A stretch of DNA of 64,000 nucleotides from the NCBI RefSeq assembly GCF_024298765.1, contig NZ_CP101210.1; one strand, given 5' to 3'. Positions 50,513 to 59,500 of this stretch are shown here, piece by piece; position 1 is the first letter of the stretch, and each line of letters starts with the position of its first letter. A program made the position numbers. Origin of the DNA: Escherichia coli. GTDB taxonomy: Bacteria; Pseudomonadota; Gammaproteobacteria; Enterobacterales; Enterobacteriaceae.

Positions 50513-53500
50513 CACCCGGTAACCACCGTAAGCATCGGCCTGAAGCACACCGCTGTAACCGGCCAGGTGATTTTGTGGATGGATACCTTTCTGGTCCGGA
50601 CTGTACGCGAACCAGACCGCCGGGGGCATCTGTGAACCGGCGTTACGGTCATCACGGACGTAGACCCACAGCCGGGCTGTCCGGGTTTTACCGCTGCCCG
50701 GCTCCTGGACCGGGACGGGGATATCATCAGCATGGACTTTACCGGGCATCAGCACATACTGGCGCAGGACGTCATACAGCGGCTCCAGCAGTTCAGCAAC
50801 AGCACTGGTCCAGCGCCCCAGCGTGGCGCGGCTCACCTCTACACCCTGACGACGGTATATTTCTGACTGGCGGTATAACGGCAGATGGTCTGCATACTTC
50901 CCGGTGACGACATGGGCCAGAAGCCCCGCTCCGGCATAGCTGCGTGCAATGGGTTTTGAAGACACCGGTGCCTGCACGATATGGTCGCACCGGCAACAGG
51001 CCAGTTTCGGACGTTGTGTTTCGATAACCTTAAAGGCGCTGCTGATAAGCTCCAGTTGCTCTGACACATCACATCCCAGAGAACTGAGTTCGCCACCACA
51101 GGCCGGGCAGCATTCCTCTTCCGGCCGGATAACCCGGGTTTCACGTGGAAGTGAGGCCGGTAACGGTTTACGGGCTGAAGACTGGCGCAGGGCGGATGGC
51201 AGTACCGGATCATACTGCTCACCCAGCGTTTCTGCCATTTCTTCCTGAAGTGCGCTGATTCGCTCCTGTGCTTCCTGTATCTGCCGTTCGGTTTTTGCGC
51301 GAAGTTTTTCTGAGCTTTTACCGAACTGCATACGCTGCAGTTTCGCAACCAGCGCCTTCAGCCGGTTGATTTCAGAAGCATAAGCCGCCACCCGCTGTGA
51401 GAGCAGGCAGTTGTATTCGGCCATCTGGCGGATGGTGTCCTGTTGCGTCTGCAACAGTGCCCGCAGGCGGGCATTCTCATGAGCAAGTGAGGTGTCCATA
51501 TCCTCACTTTACAACGGGTTATATGCGGATTCCAGCGCGTTCCGTTCGTTTCGGGTGCTTCCAGTTGATGCCCTCAAGAAGCATGGACAACTGAGCCGGA
51601 GTAAGGTGAACCTTTCCATCGCGGGTGACCGGCCAGACGAAGCGGTCCCGCTCTAGGCGTTTGGTGAAGAGGCACAGTCCGTCGCTGTCAGCCCACAACA
51701 CTTTTATCTGGTCACCCCGGCGTCCGCGGAAGATGAACAGGTGTCCGGAGAACGGGTCATCCTTCAGGACGTTCTGAACTTTTGACGCCAGGCCGTTAAA
51801 GCCATTTCGCATATCGGTGATACCTGCAACCAGCCAGATACGCGAACCGGCAGGGATAGATATCATCAGTGGCTGCTCCCTTTTATTTCACGGATAAGTG
51901 TCTGTAATAACGCCGGCGTCAGTTTACCTTTCAGCCTGAGAGTTCCGGCCGGCAGAACCAGCTCACAGCACAGACTGTCGGACAGTGTATTTGTCTGTTC
52001 AGGTATCTGCACTGGTGCCGGGATTTTATTATCCGGCTCCGGAGTTAACGTCACGGGAAGTAGCGATGTTTCATGTTCGCCGGGCGACTGCAGGCCGCCG
52101 TTACGCCAGAGACGCCGCCAGTTAAAGAGCAGGTTATCGTTGATTCCGTTCTCACGAGCTATTTGTGCGACACAGGCACCGGGTAAAAGAGTTTGCTGAA
52201 CAAGTCTCCATTTAAACTCCGGTGAAAATTGGTTCCGGCGGGTTTTCTCTGTTTTCACAGTCTGAGTTACTGTCGGGGCTGAAGGGTATCGCCCCGGGAA
52301 CAGAGCCCGGGCCAGTTGCACGCAGGAATATTCCCCGGAAAGAGGCCAGTCAGTGAATACCTGGTGAAATCGCCTCACCAGAGAAAAAATGGCGGTTTTG
52401 CTGATACCGGTCTGCGCAGAAATGCGCGGGTACGACAGTGACTCGTCAAATCTCAGTTGTAGCACACGCAGGATCAATTCCGGATTGTCTGCCAGTACCG
52501 CCTTTCGTGCATTCATCTTAAATGTCCCTTTACTGCGAAAATGGACATTAGTATCGGAAACAGGAAAGGGAGGCGAAAGACGGTTTAAATGAGACGGTTA
52601 CTGTTTTTTAGCATTTTCAATGCATAACAATTGCGAATTATATGCGTTATCTGATTGAGACAAAAGATATCCATTTTTCTCATGACAATACCATCTCCAT
52701 TTATTGTCATCAGTTTTATAAAATTTCCATATTAATCTCTGATTGCCAGATATCTTATAAATCATAATATGCTCCACTCCCCAGGGAAACGACCCTGGGG
52801 AAGGTAATCAGTGCTCTTTTATATATGCGGCTCTGTGACGTTCAAGTTCAATTGCACCACGATGTGATAACCAGCAAAAAATGATGCAACAAATAATACC
52901 GCAGCCAAGAAGATAAAATCCGCCATGCCAGCCAATATGATCGACCATAATACCAAACAGGCTGGTGCCCAGAGATGCACCGAAGATATAGCTCATAAAA
53001 CCACGTAAACCTACCGCGGAGCCAACAGCAAAGCTGGGCACGATCTCCATAGTCTGAACAGAAGCCAGAAATTGTGGAACGTAAATCAGACAACCAACAA
53101 TGGCAGCAAAAATTGTCACCATAAACAGTGATTCACTTTTCCAGTAGCCAATCAGGCAAATGAAAATCAGCGCCATACAAATCATCGCCAATGGCATACG
53201 ACGCCCTTTAAACAGTTTGTCTGACAACCAACCGGCAAGTAGCGTGGAAGGGATTGCGGCCCATTCAAAAAATAAAAACGCGACGCTCATTTGTTCTTTA
53301 GAAAAATGTTTCACCGTCAGCAGATAAATAGGCAACCAGCTAATCATCCCGAAGCGTACCATGTATACAAATACGTCAACCAGTGAGACATACCAGGCAT
53401 TTTTATTGCGTAATACATAAGTGCAGAAAATCTGAAAGGCACTCATGTTTTCTGGTGCTTTTACCGTCTGTCGGGTATTCAGGACGACTTTTTCTTCCGG

Positions 53501-56500: not shown

Positions 56501-59500
56501 TCTCCGTTATTTTGAAAATCTGAAAAAAACGGCAGATGAAAATATACGTATGCTGGATGACTGGCCTGGCACCATTACCCTGAGGCAGACTATCGATGAA
56601 TTGCTGGATATGGGAATCGTAAAAAATAAAATGCCGGATACGATGCGTGAATATGTCGCCGCCCAAAAAGCCTTAGAGGATGCCAGTCGCACCAGGGAAG
56701 CGACACTGGGTCGCTTCAGAACGTTACTGGAAGCGCAGCTTGGCAGTACTCATCAACAAATGCAGATGTTTAATCAACGAATGGAACAAATTGTTCGCGT
56801 TAGCGGTGGGCTGATCCTGGTGGCGACAGCACTGGCGTTACTGCTGGCATGGGTATTCAACCATTATTTTATCCGCTCACGGTTGGTGAAACGCTTTACC
56901 CTACTGAATCAGGCCGTTGTGCAAATTGGTCTGGGAGGCACGGAAACGACTATTCCTGTTTATGGGAATGATGAACTGGGGAGAATTGCAGGATTATTAC
57001 GCCATACTCTCGGGCAGCTCAATGTGCAAAAACAGCAACTTGAACAAGAAATTACCGATCGAAAGGTGATAGAAGCCGATCTGCGTGCCACCCAGGATGA
57101 ACTGATTCAGACAGCAAAGTTGGCGGTAGTCGGGCAAACGATGACCACGCTGGCCCACGAGATCAATCAGCCGCTAAATGCGCTGTCAATGTATCTGTTT
57201 ACAGCCCGCAGGGCCATTGAACAGACCCAGAAAGAACAGGCCAGCATGATGCTTGGTAAAGCCGAAGGGGTGATTAGTCGTATTGACGCCATTATCCGTT
57301 CACTACGGCAGTTTACCCGGCGCGCCGAACTGGAAACATCACTCCATGCCGTTGATTTAGCACAGATGTTCAGTGCGGCCTGGGAACTTCTGGCCATGCG
57401 TCATCGCTCTCTGCAAGCTACGCTTGTTCTGCCGCAAGGTACAGCCACAGTTTCAGGTGATGAGGTCAGAACCCAGCAGGTACTGGTTAACGTACTGGCG
57501 AATGCGCTTGATGTTTGTGGGCAAGGCGCTGTCATTACCGTTAACTGGCAAATGCAGGGTAAAACGCTGAACGTATTCATTGGCGATAATGGCCCGGGCT
57601 GGCCTGAGGCATTGTTGCCTTCGTTATTGAAGCCGTTTACCACCAGTAAAGAAGTAGGACTGGGTATTGGTCTTTCAATTTGTGTGTCGTTGATGGAGCA
57701 AATGAAAGGGGAATTGCGGCTGGCATCAACGATGACCAGGAATGCCTGTGTGGTACTGCAATTCAGACTAACGGATGTGGAAGATGCTAAGTAGTGAATA
57801 TTCGATTCTGCTGATTGATGATGATGCTGACGTGCTGGACGCCTACACACAGTTACTTGAACAGTCGGGCTATCGTGTTTTTGCCTGTAACAATCCTTTT
57901 GAGGCGCAGGCGTGGATACAACCAGACTGGCCAGGCATTGTGCTAAGTGATGTGTGTATGCCTGGCTGCTCTGGTATCGATTTGATGATGTTATTCCACC
58001 AGGATGATCAACAGCTCCCCATTCTGCTTATCACCGGGCACGGCGATGTGCCAATGGCAGTTGATGCGGTGAAAAAAGGCGCGTGGGATTTTTTGCAAAA
58101 ACCGGTCGATCCCGGCAAATTGCTTTCTCTGGTTGAAGAGGCACTACGCCAGCGTCAATCAATCATTGCGCGTCGTCAGTATTGCCAACAGACATTGCAG
58201 GTGGAGTTGATAGGGAGAAGTGAATGGATAAATCAGTATCGGCGACGTTTACAGCAGTTGTCTGAGACAGATATTGCCGTCTGGCTCTACGGTGCCCCTG
58301 GCACAGGACGGATGACCGGTGCACGTTATCTGCACCAATTTGGACGTAATGCACAAGGCGAATTTGTCTACCGCGAGCTGACACCAGACAATGCACCACA
58401 GCTTAATGATTTCATTGCGCTGGCTCAGGGGGGAACATTAGTGCTCAGCCATCCTGAACACCTGACGCGTGAACAGCAGTACCATCTGGTTCAGTTACAA
58501 AGCCAGGAACACAGACCTTTTCGCCTGATTGGTATTGGAGACACCTCGCTGGTCGAGCTGGCCGCCAGCAACCATATCATCGCGGAGCTCTATTACTGCT
58601 TTGCAATGACACAAATCGCTTGCCTGCCATTAACTCAACGCCCCGACGATATTGAACCACTGTTTCGCCACTACCTTTGTAAGGCATGTCAACGGCTTAA
58701 CCATCCTGTTCCGGAAGTGGGAAAAGAGATGTTCAAAGAGATGATGCGCCGCATGTGGCCAAATAATGTGCGAGAGCTGGCCAATGCAGCAGAACTGTTT
58801 ACTGTAGGAATATTACCGCTGGCAGAAACAGCAAACCCGTTGATGCACGTCGGAACCCCGGCACCGCTTGACAGGCGAGTGGAGGACGCTGAGCGACAGA
58901 TAATCACAGAGGCGCTTAATATCCATCAGGGGCGTATCAATGAGGTTGCTGAATATTTACAAATCCCGCGGAAAAAACTCTATCTCAGAATGAAAAAATA
59001 CGGTCTTAGCAAGGAGCATTATAAAAATTAAATATCAGTCTATCCAGCACAGAAATTATGGAGCCCCCCAGTCTTGGTACCAGTCCCGGGTACTGCTGTA
59101 AGTTTCTGCACCGATTCAGTAAATTTCAGCAGGGATAAAATAGTGCAGATAATCGAAGCATTACTTCCAGAGTGGGGAACATCCAGAGTTTTGTTCACAA
59201 AGTGGTGGAGCACTGGCCAAATCTGTTGGCATTTCACTTCACGCTCTATTCGGCAGAAGGAATCTATGGTCAACAGATTCAGACATTTTGTAGTTCCTTT
59301 CACCGACGGGTACACGAACGTATTACGGAGCATAATCACACGGTCAGCCCATCAGCGCCGGTGGTATTACGCTGGTTGCGGGAACAACATGAAGGAGCAC
59401 AGATACGATGTCTGTTGCTGCTCAGCCAGACGAGTATTTGCCATCCGCGAGTCGGCGTCATGGCTGATGAAGAATGTGCGCAACTGGTGGATTTACTGCA

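Follow-up and report, generated by a model that had tools for sequence, protein, structure and literature searches.

An intact, horizontally acquired pgtP-pgtCBA phosphoglycerate transport system on a selC-associated island of Escherichia coli, with a candidate PgtA operator upstream of pgtP

A 64-kb stretch of the Escherichia coli chromosome (contig NZ_CP101210.1; "the window" is this whole stretch of 64,000 nucleotides) contains at 52808-59031 the genes of a phosphoglycerate transport (Pgt) system, namely the transporter gene pgtP and, divergent from it, the slightly overlapping regulatory genes pgtC-pgtB-pgtA. All four open reading frames (ORFs) are full length. An intact, horizontally acquired enterobacterial Pgt system is the best explanation of the region as a whole, the proposed mechanism included, with a probability of about 0.9. 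An inverted repeat (dyad) between the divergent genes is proposed as the operator of the response regulator PgtA.

The four pgt genes and their products

The cluster consists of the following genes.

52808-54172, minus strand: pgtP, phosphoglycerate/phosphoenolpyruvate (PEP):phosphate antiporter of 454 amino acids (aa), organophosphate:phosphate antiporter (OPA) family of MFS, TC 2.A.1.4 (NCBIfam and Pfam)
54571-55788, plus strand: pgtC, periplasmic solute-binding-protein-like co-sensor of 405 aa from the RefSeq start, or 423 aa from 54517 (Pfam and RefSeq)
55785-57794, plus strand: pgtB, sensor histidine kinase of 669 aa with HAMP, HisKA and HATPase_c domains (NCBIfam and Pfam)
57784-59031, plus strand: pgtA, response regulator of 415 aa with receiver, degenerate AAA+ and Fis-type helix-turn-helix domains (NCBIfam and Pfam)

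A reading of the DNA made from the sequence alone (the sequence-only reading) had proposed a complete OPA-family transporter together with a three-gene regulatory unit, and both proposals are borne out by profile scores, Pfam domains and the ORF layout. PgtP matches the NCBIfam equivalog NF047787 almost from end to end (885.8 bits against a cut-off of 750; profile positions 1-448 of 451) and Pfam MFS_1 at 7.2e-53, and its scores with the GlpT, UhpT and UhpC models fall far under those models' own cut-offs. PgtB exceeds the cut-off of NF047794 (1075.3 bits against 1000; positions 2-655 of 656) and PgtA that of NF047793 (727.4 bits against 650; positions 1-414 of 414). PgtC has a periplasmic solute-binding-protein fold, with matches to Pfam SBP_bac_6 (3.9e-29) and SBP_bac_11; it is named PgtC by RefSeq in identical genomes and is 84% identical to the Salmonella protein over 395 aa. 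The ORF listing gives alternative starts for pgtC (54481 and 54571) and for pgtA (57775 and 57784).

R45 and R273 of PgtP align with R46 and R275 of UhpT, which are the essential arginines of OPA carriers known from work on UhpT and GlpT. V387 and R390 of PgtP align with D388 and K391 of UhpT. Hall, Fann and Maloney are said to have found in 1999 that an uncompensated cation in transmembrane segment 11 gives an OPA carrier a preference for PEP and phosphoglycerate; R390 of PgtP, lacking the aspartate partner, would be an uncompensated cation of the kind expected for a carboxylate-bearing substrate.

PgtA keeps E141, G173 and H223, as in the functional protein of Salmonella Typhimurium, and the change G173D in PgtA abolishes induction by 3-phosphoglycerate (3PG) in S. 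Typhi (PMC11077982). Residues 140-284 of PgtA match the structure PDB 3N70, entered as 'Transport activator' (central domain), at 100% identity; the structure is limited to the central domain, and no functional test appears in its entry record.

The dyad upstream of pgtP

Three elements of the intergenic region are needed here.

54264-54281, no strand assigned: dyad TGTGTCA-CAAT-TGACACA, the proposed PgtA operator (conservation and co-occurrence)
54307-54313, no strand assigned: third half-site TGACCCA, 32 bp from the matching dyad arm (conserved in relatives)
54369-54384, no strand assigned: conserved CRP-like block TGTGCGGATATTAACA on the pgtC side, with 8 of 10 matches to TGTGA-N6-TCACA

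The dyad, already noted in the divergent promoter region by the sequence-only reading, occurs once in the window (even at 2 mismatches, 100 shuffles gave an expectation of 0 copies) and sits 92-109 bp upstream of the pgtP ATG. A search of one genome per bacterial species returned 80 loci encoding PgtP relatives. The form TGNGTCA-N4-TGACNCA is kept in 45 loci, 44 of them enterobacterial and one from Xenophilus, once per locus of about 14 kb, at -106 to -131 from the pgtP start and at -170 in a divergent Escherichia lineage. It has 12 invariant bases and a fixed 4-bp spacing, with 18 spacer sequences across the 45 loci; the commonest form of the arm is TGAGTCA, and the invariant cores are GTCA and TGAC. 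All 45 loci encode PgtCBA or PgtCBA-like proteins, and the dyad was found upstream of pgtP in none of 20 loci without pgtCBA. The betaproteobacterium Xenophilus, with PgtC-, PgtB- and PgtA-like genes, carries it as TGGGTCAGATTTGACGCA at -120. All close relatives keep the third half-site as TTTTGAC(N)C, and Providencia has a second full dyad in its place. We infer that the dyad is the PgtA operator, PgtA being the probable dyad-binding protein because the dyad co-occurs with pgtCBA.

An inverted repeat of this kind may also be an intrinsic terminator or another nucleic-acid hairpin and not a protein-binding site. TTTTTT follows the dyad on the minus strand, the predicted hairpin energy is -8.1 kcal/mol, and the dyad was picked up by a terminator scan. 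However, no transcription from upstream runs towards it, just 8 of the 45 loci have the T-run, and the variable third arm position is complementary in just 20 of them. The 12 fixed bases and the 4-bp spacing are kept while the spacers vary. Since the T-run and pairing of the third base are each kept in fewer than half of the loci, what is conserved is two sequence-specific half-sites and not a hairpin; the terminator is hardly credible. It was ruled out on these comparative grounds, and the match in the terminator scan is incidental.

The dyad could instead be bound by another regulator, CRP or a VrpA-like protein, with PgtA acting elsewhere in the intergenic region. A Salmonella crp mutant has lower pgtP expression, VrpA binds a pgtP promoter fragment in Salmonella (PMC7873081), and the TGTGTCA...TGACACA of the window loosely resembles TGTGA-N6-TCACA. 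Yet the invariant bases are GTCA/TGAC at 4 bp and not GTGA/TCAC at 6 bp, the commonest arm is TGAGTCA, and a better CRP-like block stands elsewhere, at 54369-54384. VrpA comes from a set of Salmonella regulators absent from E. coli (PMC7873081), whereas the dyad tracks pgtCBA across the Enterobacterales into Xenophilus and is gone where pgtCBA is absent. Binding of the dyad by another regulator is thus rather unlikely, and CRP on the dyad was ruled out on its invariant bases and spacing, which are unlike the CRP consensus.

PgtA as a regulator and the putative pgtP promoter

Next to the PgtA-operator candidate stands a promoter-like element.

54225-54253, minus strand: putative activator-dependent sigma-70-type pgtP promoter, with -35-like TTGATG (54253-54248), 17-nt spacer and -10-like AACTCT (54230-54225) (alignment)

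In 22 aligned genera and species the dyad is followed downstream, after about 10 nt (9-11), by an invariant TTG and about 17 nt further on by a conserved CAnnnT. From this spacing we infer a weak, activator-dependent promoter of sigma-70-type layout, with the dyad centred near -55 and a predicted pgtP transcription start near 54218.

Membership of PgtA in the NtrC family brings in the possibility of a classical sigma-54 enhancer-binding protein, and G173 has been placed in a domain 'predicted to interact with sigma54' (PMC11077982). PgtA, however, lacks both the GAFTGA motif and the Walker B DE; its P-loop reads GAPGTGR, with arginine in place of lysine, and its Pfam Sigma54_activat match covers just profile positions 1-55 of 168. 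The Fis-type helix-turn-helix domain is present (Pfam). On the strand of pgtP, the intergenic region (54173-54570) contains no -24/-12 element (GG-N10-GC with at most 3 mismatches), and the conserved TTG and CAnnnT are spaced as -35 and -10 elements. Over the whole window the -24/-12 pattern with 3 mismatches gave 271 matches against 335 expected by chance, so that a pattern this loose is uninformative. A classical sigma-54 activator is therefore very unlikely, and we consider PgtA a degenerate NtrC-family protein that probably does not use sigma-54, because GAFTGA and Walker B are lost and no -24/-12 element is present. Early reviews of the NtrC family reportedly made the same point for PgtA, and it is hence not counted as new. 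The evidence speaks against treating PgtA as a sigma-54 activator, contrary to a passing suggestion in the literature (PMC11077982).

Taken together, the dyad and the additional half-site may be a so far undescribed operator from which a degenerate PgtA, without GAFTGA and Walker B, activates a sigma-70 promoter from about -55. This combined proposal is held tentatively, at somewhat less than even odds. The operator and promoter layout is the only part of the system for which no published description was found in the searchable literature, the 1980s Salmonella papers being outside that search. If the operator reading is true, Pgt would be a compact, self-contained, externally induced switch that moves between E. 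coli islands as a 6.5-kb cassette. For the design of 3PG biosensors, the analysis yields as a by-product a candidate layout of operator and promoter.

Conserved blocks ahead of pgtC

The block TGTGCGGATATTAACA is nearly invariant in 12 aligned enterobacterial intergenic regions. It may be a CRP site, which would agree with the dependence of pgt expression on crp reported for Salmonella. Closer to pgtC lie two further blocks.

54467-54533, plus strand: conserved blocks 54467-54489 and 54510-54533 ahead of pgtC, with the in-frame ATG 54517 (alignment and translation)

These blocks could be the pgtC promoter or leader, or could mark the true start of PgtC. The start is ambiguous: RefSeq uses the ATG at 54571 (MILLLLLM...), while another in-frame ATG, at 54517, is shared by all close relatives at the DNA level. 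Translated from 54517, PgtC would have a signal peptide closer to the canonical form, with a charged N-region. DNA conservation around ATG 54517 (ATATTTATGAaCGGGATCACAAAC) exceeds the need of a signal-peptide coding region.

Proposed mechanism and activity in E. coli

The substrates of the Pgt system in Salmonella are 3PG, 2-phosphoglycerate and PEP (PMC7873081), and PgtC and PgtB modulate PgtA, which activates pgtP there (PMC9306846). By analogy, PgtP of the window would be an organophosphate:phosphate antiporter importing these three compounds. PgtC, together with the membrane histidine kinase PgtB, would sense external phosphoglycerate, PgtB would activate PgtA, and PgtA would turn pgtP on, the order of signalling being taken from the Salmonella work. 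PgtA dimers may bind the dyad at 54264-54281 and the half-site 32 bp upstream, and the bound protein may then activate the weak sigma-70-type promoter just downstream of the dyad. In this way the cassette would add uptake of phosphoglycerate and PEP to the hexose-phosphate uptake of the core transporter UhpT. The system is probably active in E. coli.

Several points weigh against this account. No NCBIfam model for PgtC matched, so that its name rests on RefSeq and on 84% identity. The putative -10 element AACTCT is a poor match. The evidence that ties the dyad to PgtA is of two kinds only, co-occurrence and conservation. On an AT-rich island the cassette may not be expressed, H-NS silencing being one possible cause. 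Salmonella also activates pgtP via VrpA (STM2748), one of the regulators absent in E. coli, and because of this additional input pgtP regulation may differ in E. coli (PMC7873081).

The last two points lead to the alternative that the pgt genes are cryptic in E. coli, that is, an unexpressed island passenger adding no uptake, either silenced or missing inputs such as VrpA. The GC content of the region is 43-50%, insertion sequence (IS) debris surrounds it, full expression of pgtP in Salmonella uses VrpA, reported absent from E. coli (PMC7873081), and no E. coli pgt phenotype data were found in the searchable literature. Against it stand four full-length ORFs with equivalog-level scores, the retained functional residues of PgtA, the intact promoter dyad and other intergenic blocks, and a cassette kept at about 100% identity across hundreds of genomes and no fewer than three island contexts. 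The PgtCBA circuit also proved self-contained in Salmonella biosensor work (PMC11077982). A cryptic cluster is accordingly unlikely, and a functional Pgt system is preferred.

Relatives, origin and distribution

PgtP, PgtC, PgtB and PgtA are 91, 84, 83 and 80% identical to the proteins of Salmonella enterica subsp. diarizonae, 91, 86, 83 and 85% to those of Citrobacter amalonaticus and about 92, 86, 84 and 82% to those of Klebsiella michiganensis. At the DNA level the cluster is just 72-83% identical to enterobacterial species representatives. The sequence-only reading had called the system 'Salmonella-type' and had named low similarity to the Salmonella pgt genes as a result that would speak against it. 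At 80-91% protein identity the similarity is not low, and the term stands as a functional label; as a statement of origin it does not, Citrobacter and Klebsiella being equally close. A recent transfer from Salmonella is not indicated, because DNA identity is only 72-83%, and Salmonella as the direct donor is unsupported. The cluster is an ordinary member of the enterobacterial pgt family by these comparisons.

Every locus with genes for PgtC, PgtB and PgtA shows the divergent layout of pgtP and pgtCBA; there are about 53 such loci, enterobacterial ones and those of Orbaceae and Xenophilus. Among complete E. coli genomes, 430 of 5426 (7.9%) carry the cluster, counted where at least 80% of a 6.8-kb query is present.

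A second, divergent pgt cluster occurs in E. coli SCPM-O-B-8794, E. whittamii, Escherichia sp. E1V33 and Citrobacter sp. R56. Compared with the window, its PgtP is 75-76%, PgtC 56-58%, PgtB 48-49% and PgtA 49-52% identical. The three Escherichia loci have the dyad as TGAGTCAGTTTTGACTCA at -170, and Citrobacter sp. R56 has it only as a 3-mismatch version at -233. In Citrobacter koseri NCTC10786, PgtP aligns from about residue 93 on and PgtB is one piece of 390 aa, which suggests frameshifts or pseudogenes in that cluster. PgtP homologues 60-71% identical to PgtP of the window, without pgtCBA and without the dyad, are found in Firmicutes (Bacillus, Paenibacillus and Brevibacillus) and in Veillonella. 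This identity is high for such distant phyla, and the regulation of these genes must differ.

Genomic setting

The window is 99.97-99.98% identical to the chromosome of E. coli strain FDAARGOS_1286, from whose record the annotation of island and core genes was taken, and several E. coli chromosomes match its right-hand 25 kb at 100% identity. The features that define the setting of pgt are listed below.

759-2150, plus strand: core uhpT, hexose-6-phosphate:phosphate antiporter (RefSeq annotation, ORF, 33% identity to PgtP)
50495-52601, minus strand: truncated IS66-family element, with tnpA 51866-52516, tnpB 51519-51866, tnpC' 50495-51499 and outer end at about 52601 (Pfam)
38019-59602, no strand assigned: 21.6-kb block of IS1, fecIRABCDE, IS3/IS30/ISEc31 debris, truncated IS66 and pgtP-pgtCBA (99.7% identical to strain IMT5155)

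The window opens in uhpC, followed by uhpT, adeD, adeQ, nepI, nlpA and yicL, and accessory DNA runs from about 9.7 kb to beyond the window end. In FDAARGOS_1286 about 87 kb of IS-ridden accessory DNA lies between yicL and an integrase gene with tRNA-Sec. The pgt cluster is thus part of a pathogenicity island (PAI) of about 87 kb, assigned to selC by comparison with FDAARGOS_1286 because the accessory stretch ends there at the integrase beside tRNA-Sec. No tRNA genes are present in the window, selC being beyond its right end. The island contains ireA, a copy of hlyE, fecIRABCDE, many IS fragments, the pgt cluster, and phosphotransferase system (PTS) and transketolase genes.

Three statements of the sequence-only reading about this setting agree with the annotation. 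Horizontal acquisition is supported by the selC-associated location and the IS-rich accessory DNA. The core uhpT paralog, put at 50 kb away, is 50.7 kb from pgtP and encodes a protein 33% identical to PgtP; a 1-bp indel relative to FDAARGOS_1286 shifts its coordinates by one. The cluster also abuts a truncated IS66-family element, whose outer end is 206 bp from the pgtP stop.

The IS66 element has the gene order tnpA-tnpB-tnpC, with HTH_Tnp_1, TnpB_IS66, and zf-IS66 plus DDE_Tnp_IS66 domains, respectively. It is not intact: tnpC covers only positions 1-139 of 284 of the DDE_Tnp_IS66 profile and is flagged by RefSeq as 'incomplete, missing C-terminus', an ISEc31 fragment stands in place of the far end, and only the tnpA-side end is present. 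The terminal sequence on the minus strand is GTAACCGTCTCA, and the outer end at about 52601 is set by a homology break in other E. coli genomes (query position 85-90). The 206 bp between this end and the pgtP stop (52602-52807) are part of a small hypothetical gene, whose product in strain SF-468 has 121 aa; insertion of IS66 seems to have severed this gene here.

The 21.6-kb block is found in the avian-pathogenic E. coli (APEC) strain IMT5155 in a tRNA-Phe-associated island, and the blood isolate SF-468 has the same cassette beside the pap operon, without the IS66 junction. The fec and pgt genes appear to move together between tRNA-associated islands, and evidence for their travelling as a 21.6-kb block is a further by-product of the analysis.

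Other parts of the island were noted in passing. The hemolysin E gene hlyE is annotated at about 36899-37783 (+/-1), in a stretch of 37-39% GC between a recombinase fragment and IS1. Segments 59143-60065 and 32053-32981 are 89.5% identical to each other over genes of the YagK/YfjJ-domain and ProQ/FinO families, and the copy just after pgtA is frameshifted. To the right of pgt, within 60809-64000, a LacI-family regulator gene (60809-61828, minus strand) lies with genes for ascorbate-type PTS IIA, IIB and IIC, and in FDAARGOS_1286 two transketolase-subunit genes follow the PTS set, forming another carbohydrate-uptake module on the same island.

Prior reports and comparison with known systems

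Carriage of pgt in pathogenic E. coli is already known, and its finding here is correct but ordinary. The genes pgtABCP are among those of a 94-kb PAI in APEC IMT5155 (PMC4232414), pgtP was found in >30% of B2 strains in a metabolic-model study (PMC5996543), pgtP-pgtCBA has been described in PAI-IV variants in work on adherent-invasive E. coli (AIEC), and pgtABCP is present in mouse-colonising clinical AIEC strains (PMC10731797). Phosphoglycerate uptake by PgtP is a major carbon route of Salmonella inside macrophages (PMC7873081), which makes it plausible that pgt contributes to fitness in the extraintestinal, avian-pathogenic and adherent-invasive E. coli whose islands carry it.

The Salmonella pgt system reportedly goes back to Saier in 1975, followed by the Hong laboratory in the 1980s-90s, Jiang in 2021 and an mBio paper in 2024. 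Salmonella enterica has the same four genes in the same divergent order, at the protein identities given above, and its promoter dyad, TGAGTCAATTTTGACACA at -107, is at the same distance from pgtP; G173 of PgtA is also common to both. The locus is chromosomal in Salmonella, whereas in the window it lies on the selC island next to IS66, and no pgtE was seen adjoining the E. coli cluster. Salmonella also has the extra activator VrpA, reported absent from E. coli (PMC7873081).

The island of IMT5155 (PAI I5155) shares with the window the fecIRABCDE-pgt block described above, and the accessory genes of the IMT5155 paper common to the window island are ireA, fecIRABCDE and pgtABCP (PMC4232414). That paper also lists the autotransporter adhesin gene aatA, and an autotransporter gene that may correspond to it is annotated in both islands. 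The IMT5155 island is at tRNA-Phe, in contrast to selC here.

Uhp (uhpABC-uhpT) resembles Pgt in having an OPA antiporter that is externally induced via a membrane sensor pair and a response regulator, and UhpT and PgtP have the essential arginines in common. The co-sensor UhpC, however, is an MFS protein, whereas PgtC has a binding-protein fold, and the regulator UhpA is of the NarL type and PgtA of the NtrC type. The substrates of Uhp are hexose phosphates, and UhpT has the D388-K391 pair where PgtP has V387 and R390.

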